A DNA stretch of 64,000 nucleotides from Octopus vulgaris (Eukaryota). Of the stretch, positions 13,830 through 59,391 are shown one piece after another. The stretch is from contig OX597817.1 of NCBI GenBank assembly GCA_951406725.2, forward strand, positions 126,604,001 to 126,668,000. The letters are read 5' to 3'. The translations under genes and the position numbers were made by a program. The number at the start of each line of letters is the position of its first letter. Position 1 is the stretch's first letter. Below the pieces are notes generated by a model, which searched no databases, was not told the DNA's origin, and worked only from the letters and a program-made list of their open reading frames with translations.

Positions 13830-14680
13830 TTGGAACAATTAAAAGAAAAGTTTTTTAAAAGAATATTTTCACAGTATTCAAACACAAGGGGTATTTTGCT
13901 TCTTTCTGCCTGTCTCTGTATGTCTTGTTTACTCTTGTGGGTTCGAGGTCGTTGTGAATTATTGGCAAGGAAAAGAAAAAGGAGAAAAAGAAGAAGAAGA
14001 AGAAGAAGAAGAAGAAGAAAAAGAAGAAGAAGAAGAAGAAGAAGAGGAGGAAAAAGAAAAAGGAGAAGAAGAAAAAGAACAAGAACAAGAACAAGAAGAA
14101 GGTGGGAGTGCCATGATAGCGATAGGATGTTAAATGGTCAAGTGCCCTGAAAGTGACTTGTTGTGTGTGGTAGTAGTGGTTGAATACTTGAGAATCGCTT
14201 TTGAATGTATTGTTTATAAAATTTGCGTAGGTGTTATTCTAAACAGCAATAGTGGTGAAGTTAGGAAAAAGGTAGCGGAGAGGAAGAAGACAAAGAAGAA
14301 GGAGAAAGAGAAGGGAGAATGAGAAGGGAATGCAGCTGGTATGATAGTAGTAGGATGTTAAATGGTCAAGTGACCTAAAAGTGTCTAAAAGTGACTGTTT
14401 TTAATTGATTCTTGGGAATCTCTTGAGTGTATCATTTTTAATATTTGCGTGTGTTTGTGTTATTCTAAGACCGTGGTGGATATATCGTTTGTTGTTGATG
14501 CGTTCAAAAGCGGTCTGTATTTTGTAATAAAGATAGTATATTTGCTAATTTATTGGCTACAGGTTGTATCGTCCCTGAAATAGTAGAGCGGAAAAATTCG
14601 GAAGCTTGGATTTTTGTCATTGGCGCAAGTGGCGATGTGTTAGCTGAATGCTATTCTTGTGTTTTGGGTAAATTTGATCT
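13830..14680 (-). mobile_element. Inverted 3' copy (endonuclease C-terminus + terminal repeat) of the same Neptune-like PLE
   Basis: Reverse complement of ~15340-16040; for example TAAGACCGTGGTGGATATATCGTTTGTTG vs CAACAAACGACACATCCACCACGGCCTTAG. Contains (GAA)n. Confidence 0.85.
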
Positions 14681-14682
14681 AC

Positions 14683-16040
14683 CGTTCCCACTCGTGCCAC
14701 CTCAGACACACCAGAATATCCCCTTCAACCTAGCAAAAAGGATATGTACTATAGTTTCTAATGCAAACACCAGAGGCACATGACTACATGAACTAAAGGA
14801 TACACTCATCACCAGAAACTATCCCCTCTTTCACTAATTGACATATGCTTCCAACGTGACCTTCAACTCAACATCCACTAACTCAGACCTCCCAATTTAA
14901 AGAATGATTTACAACCAAGAGCCCTAACATATATCTCCACACACAACCTTCTTAACAATGAAGCCTTCGACACCATCCTTCAAAACATACCCCTGCTAAA
15001 AAAGGACCAAGTATGAACTCAATCCTCCAAACAATCACCATCATGAAAAGTGAGAGAGAAACCAAATCTATGAAAATTCTCCTAACGCAAGCCCGAATAC
15101 GCTCAACAGCAACACAGAAACCGTCAGTATAAAAGTGCGGAAGACCCAACTATGGGATATGCGCCAATTTAATTGAGGGATCAGAGTTCTGCTTCAAACG
15201 TGGACAACGTTTCACAGGTAAAAGTAGCTTCACATGTGCTTCGGAGAACCTGATATACGCACAAACCTGCTCTGGATGTCAAGAGCAATACATAGGCCAA
15301 ACAAATTTCAGTCTACGTAAAATTTTGGCTCTGCACAGATCCCAAATCAAAATTCCCTAAAACAGAAAAATAGCATTCAGCCAACACATTGACACTTGCG
15401 CCAATAATAAAAATCGAAGCTTCAGATTTTTTCCCATCTACAAATTCGGCAACCTGTTGCCAACGAATTAGTAAAGAGACTCTCCTTATTACAAAATACA
15501 GACCCCTTTGAACGCTTTTGCAACAAACGACACATCCACCACGGCCTTAGAATAACACAAACACACACGGAAATATTAAAAATAATACATTCAAGAGATT
15601 CCCAAGAACTAATTAAAAGAACTATCCCACTCACTGCTATAATCCTTAACGATTCAATTTTAGGTCACTTGACCATTTAACAGCTAACTACTATCATACC
15701 AGCAGCATTCCCTTTTCATTCTCCCTTCTCTTTCTCTTACTTCTTTATTTTCTTCCTCTCCGACATCTCCTTCCTAATGTTACCACTATTGCTGTTTAGA
15801 ATAACACCTACACAAATTATATAAACAATACATTCAAATGAGGTGACTGAAGTATTCAACCACTACTAACATCCACAACAAGTCACATTCTACCACTATC
15901 ATAGCACTCCCGCATTCTTCATCTTCTTCTGCTCCTCCTCCTCCTTCTTTTCTTCTTCTTCTTCTTCTTCTTCTTCTTCTTCTTCTTCTTCTTCTTCCTC
16001 TTCCTTGCCAAGAATGCACAACGACCACCAACCCACAACT
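14683..16040 (+). mobile_element. 5'-truncated, degenerate Neptune-like Penelope element (RT thumb, Cys-rich linker, GIY-YIG endonuclease, 3' repeat)
   Basis: Frameshifted translation: NIPFNLAKRICTIVS...TYISTHN...KCGRPNYGICANL...FTCASENLIYAQTCSGCQEQYIGQTNFSLRK...HRSQI...FSQHIDTC. Followed by a non-coding tail with (CTT)n. Confidence 0.85.
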
Positions 16041-16174: not shown

Positions 16175-16674
16175 TTATTAGTTATCACCAAGCTAATATG
16201 GTAGTCCATAAATATAGGACGAAAGCTGCCGTTGCATAGCTCAAAAAGACCATTGCCTCTAGCTATATGACACCCGAACCTGTGTCCATTACAACCTTTG
16301 AACAGGGGAGGTCAGCCGCTTCCACTAGCTGGTCCGGCACGTGCAGACATGTTTCAGGGTATTTGTGCTTTATCAATGTAGAATATTCGAATCCAGCACA
16401 CGTCGCTTCGGACCATCTGTTCTAAGGATTATTTACCAAAATTCAGTGGAATACATCCACTGGTTTTCAAACATAGGAGCATATTTTTATTTCTAAGTCT
16501 CTCTAAAGGAGACTACGTCAGCGGTACTGGATATTGATAGTTATCGCCAAGGTAATATGGTAGTCCATAAATATAGGACGAAAGCTGCCGTTCATTAGTT
16601 CCAATAGGCCATCGCCTCTAGCTAGATATATGACACAGGAAACTGTGTCCATATGTTCGAAGGTTATATGTAAA

Positions 16675-20315: not shown

Positions 20316-20811
20316 GAAGGTTTTTAATGGACGCAGGTTCGTGTGTCAAATAGCTAGCTTGAGGCGGTGGCCTCATGGAGATAACCAGCGACAGCTTTAG
20401 TCTTATATTTATAAGACTGCCATATTAGTATGGCGATAACTATTAATTTCCAGTAACGCTGCCGTAATCCCCTTTAGAGAGACTTAGTAATTTTAATAGT
20501 TCTATTATTGAAAACAAGTGGATGTATTCCACTGAAACTAGGTAAATAAAGCCTTCGAACTGGGACGATCAGTAGCGACACCTGCAAGTCTGACTACGCT
20601 GCATTGATAAGGGGCAACAACCCTGAAACGTCGTCTGTAGATGTCTAACAGGCAGGATGAAGCGGCCGACCTCCCTTGTTCGAAGATTTGTAATGGACGC
20701 AGGTTCGTGTGTCAAATAGCTAGCGTGAGGCGGTGGCCTCATGGAGCTAACCAGCGACAGCTTTAGTCTTATATTTATAAGACTGCCATATTAGTATGGC
20801 GATAACTATTA

Positions 20812-35319: not shown

Positions 35320-36290
35320 CTGTAACGATTAAATAATTAAATTTAGAAAAATTATAAAAGTTTTTTTAAAGGAATATTTTTATAGTGTTCAAATATAAGT
35401 GGCATTTTTCTTGTTTCTGCCTTTCTCTGTCTCTCTTGTTTGCACTTGTGTGTTCCAGGTCGTTGTGAATTCTTCTTAGGGTAGAAGAAGAAGAAGGTTG
35501 ATGAGGAGAAGGGGTGGAAAAATTTGGGAGTGCCTTCATTGTCTTATTTTGAATGGTCAGTGACGGCTAGCAGGAGAATATTTCTATTGAAAGGTTTGTT
35601 TATGGAATTTGCGTAGAAGTTATACTAAAATGCATTAGTGATAAAGTTAAGAAGTAGAAGGTGGAGCAGAAGAAGAAGAAGAAGAAGAAGAAGAAGAAGA
35701 AAAAGAAGATGACGATGTTGATGATGATGAGGATGAAGAAGAAGAAGAAGAAGAAGAAGAAGAAGAAGAAGAAGGAGAAGGAGAAGATGATGATGATGGT
35801 GATGATGATGACGACGATGATGATAATGATGATGATGAAGAAGAAGAAGAAGAAGAAAAAAAAGAGAAGGGAGAATATGAATGAGTGGAAGTAGTGAGGT
35901 GTTGTATGACTTGAAGTTGGCACGTTATGGATCATAGCTGTGATTGGGGCTGATTTGTAATGGATTCTTTGGAATGTAATAATTGCGGGTGTGTTTCTGT
36001 TATTCTAAAGTTGGGGTGTATTAATCGTTTGTCGTAGACCCGTTAAGAAGTGGCCTGTATTTTGTAATAAAGAGAGTTTCTTTACTTATTCGTTGTCTCG
36101 AGGTTGTATCGTCCCTAAATTGGTAGAGGGGCAAAATCCTGAAGCCTGGTGTTTTGTTGCTGGCGCAAGTACCCATGTGTTGGCTGAAAGCGATTTTTCT
36201 GCTTTGGGAAATTCTTATCTGGGATCTGTGCAGGGCCATTCTTTTACGCAAACTATTTTTTGTTTGGCCTATGTACTGCTCTTGACATAT
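35320..36290 (-). mobile_element. Third copy of the Neptune-like PLE 3' end (GIY-YIG C-terminus + (GAA/GAT)n-containing tail)
   Basis: Minus-strand CQEQYIGQTKNSLRKRMALHRSQIRISQSRKIAFSQHMGTCASNK...ETLFITKYRPLLN. The tail is homologous to 13830-14500. Confidence 0.85.
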
Positions 36291-37104
36291 ATATGATATA
36301 TATATATATCAGAAATTTAAAAAAAAACGAAAATACACTTTACATAGTTTTAAGATAATTTTAGTTGAAGGCTCGGATTTCCTTTTCAAACATGAACAGA
36401 TGTTCACAAATAAAACTATTTTCCCTTGGGCCCCTGAGAACCTAATTCATGTAATAACCTGCTCGGGTTGCGGACACAACTATATTGAACAAGCCAGTAT
36501 GACCTTGAGAAGGAGAACCACACTATATAAAGAGCAAATCCCTTTCCCGCAATAGAGGCAATTTCCTCAAAGTGAGCATATAGAAAAATGTGCAGATAAC
36601 ATCTCTCCACAAGAATGTTTAAATAAACTTTTTTCATTGAAAAATACAGAACACGTCTTAATATGCACGCATAAACAACTTTTATCATTTTACCTATTTC
36701 AATTCATGATTACATCGCTGTACATAAACCTCCTCACTAAACAAGTTTTTCGAAACCTTCTTTGTGTGTACATATATATTCCCCTCCCCTTACACAAGAG
36801 TTATCACCCTTGACCATAATACCAAAAGATAATGACGATAAAGAATTACCTCCCAATATTTTTCTTGTGAAGATATTCAGTCGTAAATATCATCACACAC
36901 AACATGGACAAAAATTTCTTCTTAAGAAAGTACATATTCAAATAAGTAAACCATAACATCATGAATAGAGAAAGCGAAACCGGTCGATATATTAAAAATT
37001 ATATTACAACTATGTAAAGTGTGTGCATTTTCCTTTTATAATTCCTTATATATATTACAACTCACCATGTGGGAATATTTGAATTTCCTCCTTATATGTA
37101 TACG

Positions 37105-37199: not shown

Positions 37200-38595
37200 A
37201 ATAATATATAAATATATGCATATATACATGTACATATGAGACATCATATATACATGACATCAAAAACGTTGAACACAATCAGAAACGAAAACACAAAAAT
37301 CAAAAACATAGAAACCAACTTTTTTCAAACAACGAAAAAAAACCCCAGAGAAATGAGACATACAACACAAGGAATATTCTCCTTCTTCACTTGTTCCTGT
37401 TTCATCAACTCCGAATTCGAAGGCAAGGACAAGACGCGACTTCGTGGAAACAGTCCTTCCCGCAATGCAAATTAAATCACATTTGGTACTTTTTGCGGAG
37501 AGTGAAAGTGGTAACAAGAACAGGACAGTAAGAACAAAACAGTAAAAACAATAAAAATGTAAAAACAGTAAAAGACTTGCTTCGAACTCCTTACCTTCGA
37601 TAATGCGGATTAGATGAAACAGGGACAAAAGAGGGTGTGTATTTCCACGCAGGAATAAAATACAGGCAAACTTGTTGTTCACAATGCACCTAAATTTGAA
37701 AAAGTTGTAATTGTTTGAAAGAAATTTACTTACATATATACCAAATTAGTTTCAACAATATTTTTGTTTATCAATGGTAACAATTTAGAAATCTGAATTA
37801 GAGAAACATCTTTAAAAGTTTCAATGTTGACAAACTTAAATTTTCATAACGGATAAGTTGAAAATTATGAAAAATACCGAAATGCCTTCCAGAACCAAGA
37901 ATAACCAATACCCTCTCCAGGGTTGCTAACTCTCTTTAAAGACAGAAAATGGGAAATTCCACTGCACCCTTCACCGCAAGTCTCAAAGATACAGAAACGC
38001 ATCACACGCCAAGAACCATCCACGTCCCAAATGGAACGTCTTCGTAAATAACCCTTTCGGATAGAACTATAAGAGAAATATGACCTGCTCACGCCCGAGA
38101 CAATATCACATAAAGAAGATTTCGAACAGGACCAAAGAAGAAGTAGGTACGTTTCCCACACGAGACATTATTTTTCCACAATAACCACCTCGTCCAAACA
38201 GCATATAACCATCACGACAACGCAACTCAGAGCCGACCGCAACAGAGAACCAACAATATACCAAGGGTCAGCGGAAGGATAATCAACAGAAACACTAATT
38301 CGTCATATTAAAACCCAAGACACCATTCTTAAATAACCTGGGCCAAAACCAAGACAGTCGATGGCATCAACGAAATGTGATATGCTGGAGGCGATAAATC
38401 TCTCGCAAGAAACTCTTTCAAACCAGCAAATCACAATTCTCGCAAAGGGATTGAAGTTCACCCCAACATCATATAGGTCGAACCTAAATGATATATACAA
38501 TGATATCCAGAAATTCTGCTGAAAACTTCGCATCACTGAAGAACTACTGGATAAATATAATAATGATCAATCAATACTTCACAATAAAAGTAGTG
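37200..38595 (+). mobile_element. Degenerate 5' part of a Penelope-like element (terminal repeat + N-terminal coding remnant)
   Basis: 38395-38590 translates INLSQETLSNQQITILAKGLKFTPTSYRSNLNDIYNDIQKFC*KLR, matching the NLS..L....L.KGL.F.PT motif upstream of PLE RTs. Contains stops and frameshifts. Confidence 0.65.
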
Positions 38596-38745
38596 GCAGG
38601 ACAAGAAGCATTGATGCTTCCTAGGGCTAAATAGCAGTAGTGTGATTCTCTTCATGGGACTGTCACATTAAGTTGACAATATACAACTACTCTATCGTGC
38701 CACTACTGCATATATCTCTCTGAGATATTTAGAAATGATTTATTT

Positions 38746-38796
<51 letters not shown>

Positions 38797-38798
<2 letters not shown>

Positions 38799-39374
38799 AT
38801 AGAAATATTAAAATTACTAAGTCTCTCTAAAAGAGAACACGACAGCGTTCCTGGAAAATAATAGTTATCGCCATACGAATATGGCATTCTTATAAAAATA
38901 AGAATAAAGCTGTCCGCTTATTAGCTCCATGAGGCCATCGCCTTAAGTTAGCTATTTGATACACAAACTGTATCCATATAACCTTCGAAAAAAGGAGGTC
39001 AGTCGCTTCACACTACTTGATCGACAGCTACAGACGCGTTTCGGGGTATTGCCCCTTTTCTATGTAGCGTAGTCAGACCAGTAGGTGTCGCTTCCGACAA
39101 TCTCTGTTCGAAGGTTTTATTTACCTAGTTTCAGTGGAATACATCCACTTGTTTTCAATAATAGAAATATTAAAATTACTAAGTCTCTCTAAAAGAGAAC
39201 ACGTAGCTGTCGATCAAGTAGTGTGGAGCGACTGACCTCCCTTGTTCGAAGGTTATATGGATACAGTTTGTGTATCAAATAGCTAACTTAAGGCGATGGC
39301 CTCATGGAGCTAATAAGCGGACAGCTTTATTCTTATTTTTATAAGAATGCCATATTCGTATGGCGATAACTAAT
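38797..39374. mobile_element. Retrozyme-like hammerhead repeat, locus 3: minus-strand 1.1-mer (38797-39202) joined to an inverted plus-strand segment (39203-39374)
   Basis: AGAAATATTAAAATTACTAAGTCTCTCTAAAAGAGAACAC at 38801 and 39163 (period 362). 39203-39374 is the near-exact reverse complement of ~38860-39031. (TA)n on both sides. Confidence 0.85.
39028..39067 (-). ncRNA. Hammerhead ribozyme motif (core partly mutated)
   Basis: Reverse complement: CTACA TAGAAAA GGGG-caata-CCCC GAAAC-GC-GTC^ TGTAG. Perfect stems I and II and a palindromic ACGCGT stem III. U3/A8 retained, U4 mutated. Confidence 0.6.
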
Positions 39375-39391
39375 ATATATATATATGTATG

Positions 39392-39467
<76 letters not shown>

Positions 39468-39619
39468 TATATATATATATATATATATATAGGTGTAAAA
39501 AGGTTGAATGTACATTCGTCCATTAATCTGGATGTTACCCCAAAATGTTTCTAATGTTGATTCTTCATATTTGCTGGTAGATTACTAGATTACAGGCGTA
39601 AATATGTGAAGATATGAAA

Positions 39620-41760
39620 GTAATACTTGTATGTGATGTGTGAGGAATTTGTGGAAAGAAGTTCAATGAAACTCATCAATTTAGATACAAATGGGGAAGA
39701 CAAGTTGTTAAAATATGTAAGAGAATTTAAATTTTAATTTATGCAGACGATCGTTTCGTAAAAAGATATAAAATGTCATGATTGAATTGAATTAGATTAA
39801 ATTATTTAAATTTAATTATATACATCAATGTACTCTTCAATGCAGGAAGTGAAAACTAAATTTACAATGAATTTGAGAATAGATGTAGAAGAAGAATAGA
39901 ATTTAGGAGATTCATATTTTATCCTTGTGAGAAAGAGTTGTGTTTCAAGTTAGATATGAACTATAACTAAGGGCTGTAACGATTATTTGAAAACATAAGT
40001 AAAGAAGTATCAGAGACGTTCCCTCTATAGATGGGGAAGGAGATAAGAAATTTAATCTCCAAATAAATAGTGTGGGGCAAAGACTTTAATAGATATGTCC
40101 AATGGAAAGAGATTGCTATATTTGAATTAAGATATGAACTGACAGTTGAAAACGTTACTTAGCGTGATGTTTTTATGTAACCCCAATCAACAAACCCATT
40201 ATAACCCTTGCTGGTTTTATTCAACTTGTCACCATACCTGATATTTACATATAACTTACTGTTGATATATGCACGCATGCAGGCACATATAGTACTTCTA
40301 CAACAATGTGTCAATATCTAGATATGAATTTTATATGTCATCTGCGTGTGTATATCTATTGTTTTGTGATCCTTTACTCTCTGTTGGTACTAACATGTAT
40401 TTTTAATATGAACGTATGTATCAGTGTATATACGTATGTTTCACATACATATATGCTTATTATACACCGGTATGTGTATATCATTGTATGGTGTTTCTGT
40501 TTTTCTTATGTACACCCTAATCATATATCACCTAGAATTCCAATATCTATACTAATGTGCCAATATGTCTCTACTCACGTATGAGTAAATATATTAACAC
40601 TTTTTTCCTTATAAGCTTATTTTTCTCCGACAATATGTATAAAATTGTGTACATTTATGTGCACTCTACTTCTCGTATCTCTTCTTATTGCATAATTGTC
40701 AATACTCTTCCATTACTTGAATATCAATATTACTCCACTACCATTGCATATCCCTCTCATATAATTCTAAGCTAGTTTTTTCCTCGTAATAAATTTTTAT
40801 TTATACTAAAATATAGCTACCGTGTAACCTTGCACATCATTGCATAAGTAAAATAAACCGTTTTATTTACTTAATATTTCCATTCCCAGCTCATTTTATC
40901 CTCTCCATTGATTTATTTATTTATTTTTCCTTATTCTTACTTTTCTTGCCTGTTTCAACCTCAGTTCTGTCATCTTTATAGCCACACCAAGTATTTAGTA
41001 TTTAAATTGAAATATTAATAACTATTTCTCTGCTTTTACTTATTTTTCTGCCTTATATTTAATACACACTAAAGAATATTAGTTTCTAATGCATACATAT
41101 GTGCCTCTTATACATATTAATCTCTCTTTAGCTCTTTATACCTCTCTAATATTTGTTAACATTAACTATCTAGTATTAGCTATTTCTATACAATTTCCTC
41201 AAGATGAACTTCATTCTCATGTATAATTTTTACAAATAAAAACTACATTACACTAAGTAATGTTTTCAACTGGAAGTTCATATCTTAATTCAATTATAGT
41301 AGTCCCTCTCCATTAGACAATTCTATTACAATTTTTTTTCTAAACTCCTTACTAAGCTATACAAGGGACGTTTCTGTTATCTCTTTACTTATATTTTCAA
41401 ATAGTCGTTACAGACATTAATTATAGTTTATGGCTGACTTGACTCTCATCTCCTTCTCACAAGGATAATATATGAATCATTTAGATTCTATTCCTCTGCT
41501 ATATCCTTTCTCAAGTTCATTGTAAATTCTGTTATCACTGCCAGTATTGAAGAGTACATTGATATATATAATTAAATTAATTTAATTAATGTAATCTAAT
41601 TCATTTCTATCATGAATTGTTATATCTCTTTACGAAACGACCGTCTGCATGAATTAAAATTAAACTTCTCATAATTTTTAACAACTTGTCTTCTCCATTT
41701 TTAACTAAATCCATGAGTTTTATTGGATTACTTTCCATAAATTGCACGACACATCATATA
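39620..41760. repeat. Long diverged inverted repeat: arms ~39620-40180 and ~41235-41760
   Basis: Shared reverse-complement blocks: GAAGACAAGTTGTTAAAAT, ATGCAGACG.TCGTTTCGTAAA, TCAATGTACTCTTCAAT, ATCCTTGTGAGAA, CTGTAACGA.TATTTGAAAA, TTGAATTAAGATATGAACT..CAGTTGAAAAC.TTACTTAG. Confidence 0.8.
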
Positions 41761-52325: not shown

Positions 52326-55300
52326 TGACAGATCCCGTCTTTTTCCCTTTCTTTTCGTTTCCTTCTCCGTATTTTATTCTCATTATTTCGAACTAATACA
52401 GACACAGTAAGCTTTGAAGAAAGGAAGAGGAGGAAAGGAAAAAAAAAAAAAAAAAAAAAAATGTCCGGAGATAAAACTATCAACAAAAAAAATACAGACG
52501 AATATAGATCTGCTAGTCTTAAGAAGCGGCGCTATGAGCAATGCTTACACGTAGTGAACCCTAAACTGACAGATCCATCTCCTAATATAAGAATGGATGC
52601 TCGTCATGCTTCAAGGTCAACAAATCAAACAATAAACCGCATTGGTCATTGCGCGGATTACAAAAGACCACGTACCCGAAAATTGAACCAAATCCTGATT
52701 GAAAAATCAGTTACTGGATCAAATCTTCCCAACACACAGGAGCTGGACGAACCCCACAACCGGAATATTCCAACAGATGGCCATCCATGCTCATCACCAA
52801 ATAATCAAAAGAAAAAGAAGGAAAAATGGTCTAGGGAAGATAATAAAGAAGTTCTTGAGGCCTTCTACCATGCCATATATTTCCCCACAGATAAGTCTAG
52901 CACTGTACAAGCATACTTAAACTGGAGACAGAAACACCCTGAAGTAAGACCCTACATAGACAGTAACAAGCTTGCCAATGTTAGAAGAAACATTATAAAA
53001 AAGAAATTACTGACTGAAGTAGAGATTGATCAGGTTAGACAAGCAATATCGGATAAAATGAACGAAGCTGCAGCTAGAGAAGATAATACAGAGGAAATGA
53101 TTATAGACCAGCCCAGAGCGGATAAAAACGAAGAGAGGATTGAAAGAGTTAGTATAAGTGATAGGCAAAGTGAAATACGCCCTGAACCAATCATAAACAC
53201 TAAGACAGATGAGCATCAAATAGATAAAGAAAGTCACACAAATATTGACCCAACAGAACTACATGAGCTAAAAAATCAAATCATGATTGAATGGCTGAAA
53301 ATTAAAGAAACCAGCATGGATGAGCGTGATACACTTCCTAAAATCCGCAACTCTAACCAAAACATGAAAATAATTGGTAAAATCCGGCTTGCACTTAGGG
53401 ATATAATTTCAGTTAATGATGTTGATATCACAAACCTCAACCACCTATACTATGCATCCGCGAAAATCTCAACGATCCTATGTGGTGTAAAGATTAGAAA
53501 ACGGCAACAGTCCCACAAAAAGCCTTCTTGGCAAGAGCGTCTGCAACAACAAATTAAAATATTTAGATCTGACATTGAATATTTGAAAAACCTTAAGGCT
53601 CACAAGATTACCAAACCTACAAAAACCCCAAAATTACTGAAAAAATACAATATGAAAACTATACTTGATATTGATGCCACCATAGAAACCATCAAACAAA
53701 AGGTATCTGCCAAAGCTGCCCGCATAGCGAGGTATGAAAAGCGTGTTAGATTTTTCAAGGACAACAACATGTTCAAAAATAACACCAAGAATTTTTACAG
53801 GAAGATGGGAAAAACAGCGTTTACTGCAGGGTCTGTACCATCAAAAGAAGAAGTGCAGAGATTTTGGAATAAAATCTGGGCAGAAGAAAAAACACACAAC
53901 GAAAAGGCCCCCTGGATTGACAGAATATCCACAGAACTGGACCCCTTAGAAGAGCAAAAGTGGGAGGGTGTCAAGGTAGAAGATATAAGATCTGCTCTCA
54001 GGAGGTCAAGCAAATGGAAGTCTCCAGGAAAGGATAAAATTCCTAACTTCTGGCTGAATGCCTTCCCAGAGAGCCATGAACTGCTAACAGAACTGTACAA
54101 TGATGTTTTGCAACACCCTAGTAGGATGCCTCCTTGGCTAGTTAATGGGTTAACATTCCTGCTTCCAAAAAGTGAAGAAACAAATGAACCAAAAAACTAT
54201 AGACCCATAACTTGCTTAACAACTATGTACAAAACACTAACATCTGTCCTGACGGAATATACCTATAGTTTTTTAACAGACAGCAGCATATTCCCTAATG
54301 AACAGAAAGGATGTAAACGTGGATCCTACGGCTGTAAAGACCAACTACTCATCAATAAGATGATCTTAGAAGATTGTCACAAACGACACAAAAACTTATC
54401 AATAGCCTGGATAGACTATAAAAAGGCTTTTGATAGCCTACCACATAGCTGGATTAGGAAATGCCTTGAAATGTATAAGATAGCACCAACTCTGCGAAAC
54501 TTCTTGACTGTAAGTATGAGATCATGGAGAACCACACTAACTCTGAACAGTGACAGTGAATCCCTAAATGCTGGTGATGTAAAAATTTCGTGTGGCATTT
54601 TCCAGGGTGACTCACTGTCACCACTCCTCTTTTGTTTATCCTTAATACCTCTCTCAAAGCTGCTCAATGACGCGCAGTACGGGTATAAATTGTTTGATAA
54701 AAATATAAATCATCTCGTTTACATGGATGATTTAAAGCTTTTTGCAAAAAATGATCAACAACTCAAGGGCTTACTAGCGATAGTCAAACAATTCAGTGAC
54801 GACATCAGAATGCAATTCGGCCTCGATAAATGTGCAAAGGCTACCTTTATCAAAGGAAAAATGACAGAAACATCTAACGTTAACCTTGACCAACAGAATG
54901 TCATAAAAGAACTAGACCCAGCGGAGAGCTACAAGTACCTAGGGATAATTGAAGGGAACGGAATAAGGCATTCAGAGATGAAGGAAAGGATCAGGAGAGA
55001 ATGCTATCGAAGAGTGAGAGCAATACTCAAGACAGAGCTGAATGCAAGAAACAGGATCGAAGCAATCAATGCATTAGCTATACCAGTCGTGACTTACAGT
55101 TTCAATATTGTTAACTGGTCAATTACTGAAATATGTCAGCTCGACAGAAAAATAAGGAAACTGTTGACAATGCATAGAATGCACCACCCTAAGGCAGATA
55201 CAGAACGACTCTATCTGCCAAGAAAAGAGGGAGGCCGTGGTCTTTTGCAACTGGCAATAACAATGAAGATTGCTACAATTGGCCTAGACACCTACCTGAA

Positions 55301-56500
55301 AAACTCTGAGGACTGGATGCTAAAACTTGTCTCAAAACATGAAAACAAGAAAGCATCATACTCAGTCACAACACAGGCAAAGGAATATCTAAGTGAATTC
55401 CGAATACAACCAATTTCGGAATTAGAGATAGATATACAAGAAACAAGCACAGAAAAAGCTAGGCGCATGAAAACCCGTGCCAAAACTGCGGCCTTAGATA
55501 TTCTGAATAATAAATGGCAAGAAAAACCTCTCTATGGCAAATACCCAAAGAGAGCGAATAATGCAGATATCGACAAAGCCCTGACCCATCAATGGCTAAT
55601 GGCCTCTGGCTTAAAATCTGAAACAGAGGGGTTTATCATAGCAGCTCAAGATCAATGCCTACCAACAAGAAACTACCAGGCCAACATATTAAAGATCAGA
55701 AGCAGTCCAACGTGTCGTGTATGCAAGCAACAAAATGAAACCATTGACCATGTGGTCTCCAAGTGCAGTCTTCTAGCGCCTACAGAGTATCTCAACAGGC
55801 ACGATAGAGCTGCACAATATATTCACTGGGTAATCTGTAAAAACCTGGATTTGCCCCATGAAAAAAACTGGTGGGAACACAAACCACCCCCAGTGCTTGA
55901 AAATGACCACATCTCACTCCTCTGGAACTTCACCATTCAAACTGACAGGAAGATAGATGCAAATAGGCCAGACATCATATTGAAAAACTTCAAACAAAGA
56001 ACATGCCTCCTCATTGATATGACTGTCCCAATCGATATAAACGTATCTGTCAAGACCTACCAAAAACTGAGCAAATATAAAGATCTTGAAATAGAAATCA
56101 GCAAAATGTGGAAGCTGAAGACTAAAACAATACCTGTTGTCATAGGTGCCCTGGGAATGATAGCAAAAGGGGCTGATAGCTACCTAACTCAGATACCAGG
56201 AAACCCAAAAATGGCAGAAGTTCAAAAGATAGTGCTCATGGGAACTGCTCATATCCTACGCAAAATACTCTCTATGTAATCTCAAGGTTTAAAACAAACA
56301 TAATTTTCGGTTTAAAAAAAAAAAAAAAAAAAAACCTTTTTTTTTCTTTTTAGACATTCATTAGTACAACATCCCCACCCCCCAAATATATGGCACACTA
56401 GGCATAACAACAACATGAACTTCCAACCCTGTTGTCTCTTGAGGTCTCTGGGTGAGACTTGGAGCCAACTTGTACAAATATAAAGCAAAAGTCAAACATA

Positions 56501-57979: not shown

Positions 57980-59391
<1,412 letters not shown>

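Follow-up and report, generated by a model that had tools for sequence, protein, structure and literature searches.

Arms and junction at the locus

Within the window, the 64,000-nucleotide stretch of Octopus vulgaris DNA analysed here, two copies of a short repeat are joined head to head (Table 1). We number the repeat unit from the first base past the predicted hammerhead cut, which lies between 39033 and 39032 on the minus strand, so that +1 is window position 39032. The minus strand reads GAAACGCGTC up to the cut and TGTAGCTGTCGATCAAG past it, the second part opening TGTAGC. The plus-strand arm begins at 39203, that is at unit +2, and because G39203 is common to both arms the break lies at +2 or +3. 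The original prediction that the inversion junction falls at the predicted hammerhead cut is thus borne out. Its description of the inverted segment as almost identical to its mirror copy also holds, as 39203-39376 on the plus strand and the reverse complement of 38858-39031 agree at 170 of their 174 bases. The left arm is a full 362-nt unit plus 45 nt and passes uncut through a hammerhead. One arm at this locus stops at +2/+3 and the other at 192, and both face outwards with their 3' ends in (TA)n. No open reading frame of at least 150 aa is present across 38797-39376; the element is non-coding and carries neither an RT nor a GIY-YIG ORF.

Table 1. Window coordinates of the two arms, their junction and their flanks
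Feature	Position	Strand	Remarks
Left arm	38797..39203	-	407 nt; unit 192-362 then 1-236; 3' end is the family's 'long' end
Right (inverted) arm	39203..39376	+	174 nt; unit +2 to 175; 3' end is the family's 'short' end
Head-to-head junction	39203..39203		1-nt (G) microhomology
45-nt exact direct repeat, copy 1	38797..38841		unit 192-236
45-nt exact direct repeat, copy 2	39159..39203		
(TA)n tract at the 3' end of the left arm	38750..38795		inferred target
(TA)n tract at the 3' end of the right arm	39377..39491		inferred target
Type I hammerhead motif, predicted	39027..39068	-	motif and fold

Several other mobile elements share the window. Older relatives of the unit lie at 20316-20811 (plus strand, about 85% identity, UUGAUAA core, short 3' end by (TA)n) and at 16176-16654 (minus strand, 74-77% identity, UUGAUAA core). 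Broken Penelope-like remnants occur at 14499-15453, 36042-36645 and 59023-59389, two of them with head-to-head inverted pieces. An intact 1316-codon frame at 52329-56279 (plus strand), with RVT_1 and weak zf-RVT matches, is apparently an intact non-LTR retrotransposon of another kind. The 251-nt inverted repeat pair at 39800-40050 and 41337-41587 (81% complementary, 1286 nt apart) is possibly an old DNA transposon.

The predicted hammerhead

The predicted hammerhead has a stem I of 6 bp (GCUACA/UGUAGC), a stem II of 4 bp (GGGG/CCCC) and a stem III that is minimal and palindromic, for which reason cleavage is predicted to need dimers (PMC4209133). An Rfam scan of the window returned nothing at the gathering threshold, so that the hammerhead is called from its motif and fold. 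For the window unit the predicted fold has an energy of -118.8 kcal/mol (z = -7.5) and forms a long rod that pairs about 1-57 with 275-332. The core of the window copy reads UAGAAAA, with a U4A change at 39061 that is private to this copy, while the family core is UUGANAA. Each unit of the family carries the motif. Stems I and II are nearly invariant across the family, as is the GAAA/UH core; U3 and A8 occur in all of the approximately 317-321 family calls, and the catalytic core is almost invariant. Covariation of U3 and A8 has been described for Penelope-like hammerheads (PMC4209133).

A young retrozyme family with two-armed insertions

The repeat at this locus is a member of a young non-coding 362-nt hammerhead repeat family, a non-LTR retrozyme, found in (TA)n. 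The unit has a GC content of 0.39 and no ORF, and forms arrays of up to 5.5 units; non-LTR retrozymes have tandem units of 150-450 nt with a GC content below 50%. Hundreds of copies exist, with about 0.6% divergence per arm. Genome searches covered the 2.8-Gb assembly (227 contigs) and used the short 3' end with TA repeats as an anchor, giving 336 and 188 exact matches genome-wide; anchoring on the 3' end was chosen to avoid bias on the 5' ends. From the first 100 matches in genome order of each search, 100 and 91 were taken. One duplicate locus, the duplicated second copy in locus L042, one edge-cut locus and one locus at an N gap were left out.

Arms of this family have fixed 3' ends (at unit about 172-175 and about 234-237) and scattered 5' ends. 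In 131 of the 149 sampled inversions, an arm ending at 170-179 is paired with one that ends at 230-240, each in (TA)n; one of these two canonical ends was set by the anchor and the other was free. The remaining 18 junctions lack the canonical pair of ends, and 41 of the 149 carry insertions. Microhomology of at least 2 nt, typically 2-4 nt, is found at 76 of 99 young insertion-free junctions, against 16 expected. The family thus combines tandem and inverted 5'-truncated copies with a one-sided tail, here of 62-65 nt, as in Penelope-like elements, and its fixed 3' ends, variable 5' ends and dispersed (TA)n copies point to dispersal by retrotransposition. Of the proposed combination of a hammerhead with an inverted insertion, the strand is as named and the Penelope-style layout recurs across the sample; the sharp breakpoint peak that was to accompany it does not appear. 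The geometry also misfits the suggestion that reverse transcription switched template or strand. Since each arm has its own fixed 3' end in (TA)n, the arms are better read as two separately primed cDNAs joined at their ends.

Breakpoints around the predicted cut

In the unbiased sample we considered 281 young arms (at least 93% identity, canonical 3' end). Four of their 5' ends (1.4%) lie at +1..+3, against 2.2 expected under a uniform stop rate (P=0.17). This interval ranks 69th among the 362 three-nt windows, and 217 passes cross the cut. Under uniform breakage, the chance that one of two arm ends lies at +1..+3 is about 1.7% (2x3/362), and junctions like that of the window arise at a low but ordinary rate. 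Genome-wide, the cut is crossed by 1204 exact 22-mers, and exact patterns show 7 apparent starts at +1. At +2 there are six exact patterns, one of which is an intact copy with a 1-nt insertion, leaving five real starts.

A single-base tally was made from sequences anchored at 21-39 and broken before position 342. From 201 matches genome-wide we dropped three duplicates, nine indel-bearing intact copies and two out-of-range ends, and tallied the remaining 187 by hand. Across this 39-nt range, +1..+3 holds 31 ends (6 at +1, 7 at +2 and 18 at +3); 103 lie at +4..+19, 41 at 353-362 and 12 at 343-352, with highs at +9 (16 ends), +12 (12) and +14 (18). With microhomology modelled, the rate at +1..+3 is 1.6 times that downstream at +4..+19 (p=0.018) and 2.45 times that upstream at 353-362 (p=0.0002), p-values that ignore strong overdispersion and recurrent identical junctions. 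The interval is the second-highest 3-nt window of the tally, and a single step in rate is best placed at 353 rather than at the cut. More than half of its ends (18/31) are at +3, where TA microhomology meets the (TA)n target, and many of these adjoin TA-rich flank or the AGCTA at unit 107. Comparable TA sites hold 5 ends (+18) and 3 ends (346-347). A run-off end trimmed to TA microhomology and plain microhomology are inseparable here.

The tally patterns recover about 32 of 44 broken copies, which implies about 42 ends, or about 3% of passes, at +1..+3, about half of them above the local background. About 97% of passes genome-wide run through the cut. The expected sharp peak of breakpoints is therefore missing both from the unbiased sample and from the genome-wide tally, where the excess is only mild and compatible with a small cut-template fraction. 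What survives of the idea that reverse transcription ran off a self-cleaved RNA is the position of the window junction and this mild excess; the lack of a sharp peak and the extensive read-through speak against it. With about 3% of passes stopping at +1..+3, run-off at the window junction is a minority prospect, and we doubt that this junction records a ribozyme-cut 5' end at the predicted cut. A lone junction at the cut site of a ribozyme counts only weakly as evidence for cleavage, and the headline of the original prediction, the junction as a trace of ribozyme activity, is weakly supported.

Real hot spots lie elsewhere in the unbiased sample, at 39-45 (26 ends observed, 6.2 expected), 201-208 (19 and 6.4) and +4..+19 (25 and 12.2). 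Availability of microhomology alone fails to account for the regional hot spots, as the model gives 6.7 ends at 37-45 where 26 are observed. Family-wide, arm 5' ends cluster 2.5-4x at unit 13-17, 39-45, 203-208 and 260-266, mostly towards the 5' side of predicted helices. Two apparent clusters were discarded. About five arms starting at -1..+2 came from a score-ranked search, which is biased to near-identical full units, and are absent in the end-anchored sample. A sharp hot spot at unit 194 was mostly family indel polymorphism, the corrected count at 189-195 being 7 against 5.3 expected. The best single candidate for run-off from cut RNA is a separate locus (L241/L249, G000:C6:104075043-104075163), where the two arms stop at +1 and +2, an insert of about 40 nt separating them.

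Haplotypes and continuity of the template

To the unbiased sample we added 23 loci selected by score, and compared haplotypes at 16 common polymorphic sites. Disagreement is rare within a locus: random drawing would give 538 mismatches in the 1408 comparisons between arms, where 49 are observed, and 683 in the 1842 between tandem units, where there are 36. At other sites, arm-arm divergence is 1.17% and unit-unit divergence 0.98%, and this closeness indicates that the arrays are as old as their insertion. Among 374 rare-allele cases, 16 are in every copy of the locus, 12 in some and 346 in one. Of the within-locus variants, 240 of 320 are private to one locus, and the most recurrent of them are at indel-prone sites. 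The seam at the cut carries 2 indel bases in 1285, against 0.25% elsewhere.

Arm lengths bear on the same question. In 18 of 121 pairs each arm is longer than one unit, the two lengths together exceed unit plus tail in 73 of 121, and they correlate (rho 0.37, n=110). The stop rate is about 0.15-0.35 per 100 nt to 1 kb and stays roughly flat to 1.4 kb. From these sequence patterns, the arrays appear to have been born at insertion from one template haplotype continuous across the cut. Cut-spanning, haplotype-uniform arrays would be explained most simply by a circle, and the copies were likely made mostly from circular RNA.

At the window locus the arms differ at unit 25, and exact 36-nt matches place the left-arm allele elsewhere only in locus L031. 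This difference hints at two template units. Rare alleles fixed in one locus and mixed in another number 8 in 199 loci, which makes unit 25 unexceptional. A greater arm-to-arm divergence at cut-site loci was considered and set aside as not significant (11 versus 102 loci, p=0.24).

A candidate Penelope-like helper

A search for GIY-YIG domains, in which 150 of 6136 candidates were scored, led to 20 long-frame loci that we examined. Sixteen of them have a 781-codon open frame with an RT (just below the Pfam cut-off) and a GIY-YIG domain. The 20 loci (L293-L312, e.g. G000:C4:116249000-116256000) belong to a young autonomous Penelope-like family, which lies in (TA)n and has a UUGAUAA (U3-A8) hammerhead core. 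Its 3' ends fall at +72 after its predicted cut in 15 of 20 loci and at +111 in 5 of 20, 39 nt apart, and the longer end reads CTATTAT, like that of the retrozyme. The retrozyme unit has no significant nucleotide match to the 20 young Penelope-like loci (best E 3.5). Across 30 GIY-YIG loci from the 150 scored candidates, the sole strong match is a retrozyme copy beside a Penelope-like element, on the opposite strand (L281). A partnership of the retrozyme with this young family is suggested by common features only.

Closer to the junction, 37932-38615 (plus strand) holds a broken N-terminal piece of an older Penelope-like ORF that ends near the (TA)n tract of the retrozyme. It is 44% identical to the protein of the young family, and copies of its own family are 68-93% alike. 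This remnant has no significant match to the unit, and we treat it as a neighbour in the (TA)n tract.

Proposed mechanism and alternatives

We consider it fairly probable that the locus is a two-armed retrozyme insertion made by two-strand Penelope-like priming on a circular template, with joining by microhomology. A Penelope-like RT-endonuclease likely nicks both strands of a (TA)n tract, one circular retrozyme RNA is likely copied from two fixed start sites, and the two cDNAs are then likely joined end to end through microhomology. Each cDNA would have a near-constant chance of stopping, about 0.33% at each nt, apart from hot spots tied to structure or sequence. The mild excess at +1..+3 may come from a small fraction of templates, about 1-2% of passes, that were linear RNA cut by the ribozyme. 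We infer the enzyme, the circularity of the template and self-cleavage itself. To a more specific version we give a little less than even weight: a Penelope-like RT dimer would carry out double target-primed rolling-circle reverse transcription on a single circRNA, with starts 62-65 nt apart, one for each nicked target strand, and closure by microhomology, the excess at +1..+3 being the cut-template fraction (about 1-2%).

The strongest competitor, which we hold to be somewhat unlikely, is a linear template with a hammerhead-cut 5' end, on which the right arm ran off at +1, lost 1-2 bases and joined the left arm; such a template could be dimeric, its internal ribozyme left uncut, or it could be a cut monomer accompanied by another RNA. 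The position of the window junction suits it, as do the genome-wide excess, the surplus at +3 over the other TA sites and the unlike arms at unit 25. The window arms would also fit one linear dimer without overlap, with 17 nt between the stop of the left arm (192) and the priming site of the right. Against this, arms ending at 237 do not generally stop just 3' of 175, the counts at +1 and +2 are no higher than those of many neighbours and are equalled or exceeded at +9, +12 and +14, and the unbiased sample has no excess at +1..+3. Nor are the arms of cut-site loci significantly more divergent, and the pattern at unit 25 is matched by other rare alleles. If instead the ribozyme were rarely active in vivo, uncleaved linear multimers from homogeneous tandem source loci could be copied with no circle at all. 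We judge this unlikely. A homogeneous multimer would also yield common haplotypes, the minimal palindromic stem III would make cleavage dimer-dependent (PMC4209133), the main substrate of a Penelope-like protein in vitro is unprocessed RNA (PMC11167929), and in the autonomous family the starts of the 10 upstream repeats all miss the cut, the closest lying at -7. The 16 new alleles fixed in all units of single arrays, however, would need frequent monomer bottlenecks, and the stop rate that does not climb with length, the variants private to one locus and the almost invariant catalytic core likewise tell against uncleaved multimers.

Haplotype-uniform tandems with a mild excess of stops near the cut could also be built by precise jumps from the end of one cut linear monomer to that of the next. 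Such template jumping is quite improbable, as the seam is scar-free whereas arm-arm joints carry microhomology or insertions, and nearly all passes continue past the cut. It is barely credible that misassembly produced the inversion, or that a satellite-like repeat was rearranged later at the DNA level: the two-arm layout with fixed 3' ends is repeated at 131 of the 149 junctions in the sample, every one joined in its own way, the window arms differ at 4 of 174 bases, and units are as old as arms. None of the contigs listed for four public runs spans the window junction, which proves nothing. Two-strand priming on a circular template thus remains our preferred reading of the locus, and a young family copied hundreds of times offers a countable in vivo record, one that argues for a continuous, probably circular, template.

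Comparison with known systems

In L1 twin priming, two cDNAs are primed from opposite target strands and joined head to head by microhomology, the arms coming from non-overlapping parts of one linear poly(A) RNA. Here, by contrast, both priming sites are fixed, poly(A) is absent, and the two arms draw on overlapping parts of the template and can both be longer than a full unit. The window locus alone would fit a linear dimer, but family-wide the arms do overlap.

In mussel, most RNA of the retrozymes, which measure about 350-390 nt, is circular, and the same largely holds for axolotl (PMC7229834). Cervera and de la Pena (2020, PMC7229834) proposed that priming on a circRNA lets an RT synthesise tandem cDNA, and named Penelope-like elements as possible helpers. 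The octopus family resembles these metazoan non-LTR retrozymes in its non-coding tandem unit of about 360 nt and 39% GC, its one type I hammerhead and its rod fold. It differs in that most of the sampled insertions have two head-to-head arms with two fixed 3' ends in (TA)n, and in its U3-A8 core; the word 'inverted' is absent from the main text of PMC7229834. Among the published accounts available to us, those of how retrozyme RNA circles return into animal genomes are models, and so are those of the inverted copies and one-sided tail of Penelope-like insertions. We found no comparable breakpoint census in the literature covered, which leaves out most subscription journals and supplements; supplements may show similar structures.

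A recent preprint describes retrozymes as non-autonomous derivatives of the pseudo-LTRs of Penelope-like elements (bioRxiv 10.64898/2026.07.22.740005). As there, the retrozyme co-occurs here with Penelope-like elements of matching hammerhead type. In contrast to the local tandem amplification proposed in that work, the arrays here appear to be born at insertion, since tandem units have diverged about as far from each other as arms have.

Penelope-like elements are known for inverted copies truncated at the 5' end, for tails and for a (TA)n bias (PMC8557442). In vitro, a Penelope-like protein nicks each strand of AT-rich DNA and extends it, and its RT starts at two internal RNA sites, which define the tail; the ribozyme was dispensable in this reaction, and RNA-seq gave no reads with an end at its cut (PMC11167929). 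The retrozyme insertions are like these (PMC8557442, PMC11167929) in their inverted truncated copy beside a tandem, their tail, their (TA)n bias, their two probable RT starts and the probable nicking and extension of both target strands. They are unlike them in that the retrozyme has no ORF, its tail of 62-65 nt compares with 30-40 nt, and nucleotide comparison of its unit with the pseudo-LTR of the young autonomous family gives nothing significant. The retrozyme family gives useful in vivo support for two-strand priming on a continuous, likely circular RNA, a record that agrees with the two-strand, two-start-site chemistry of the Penelope-like protein in vitro (PMC11167929).
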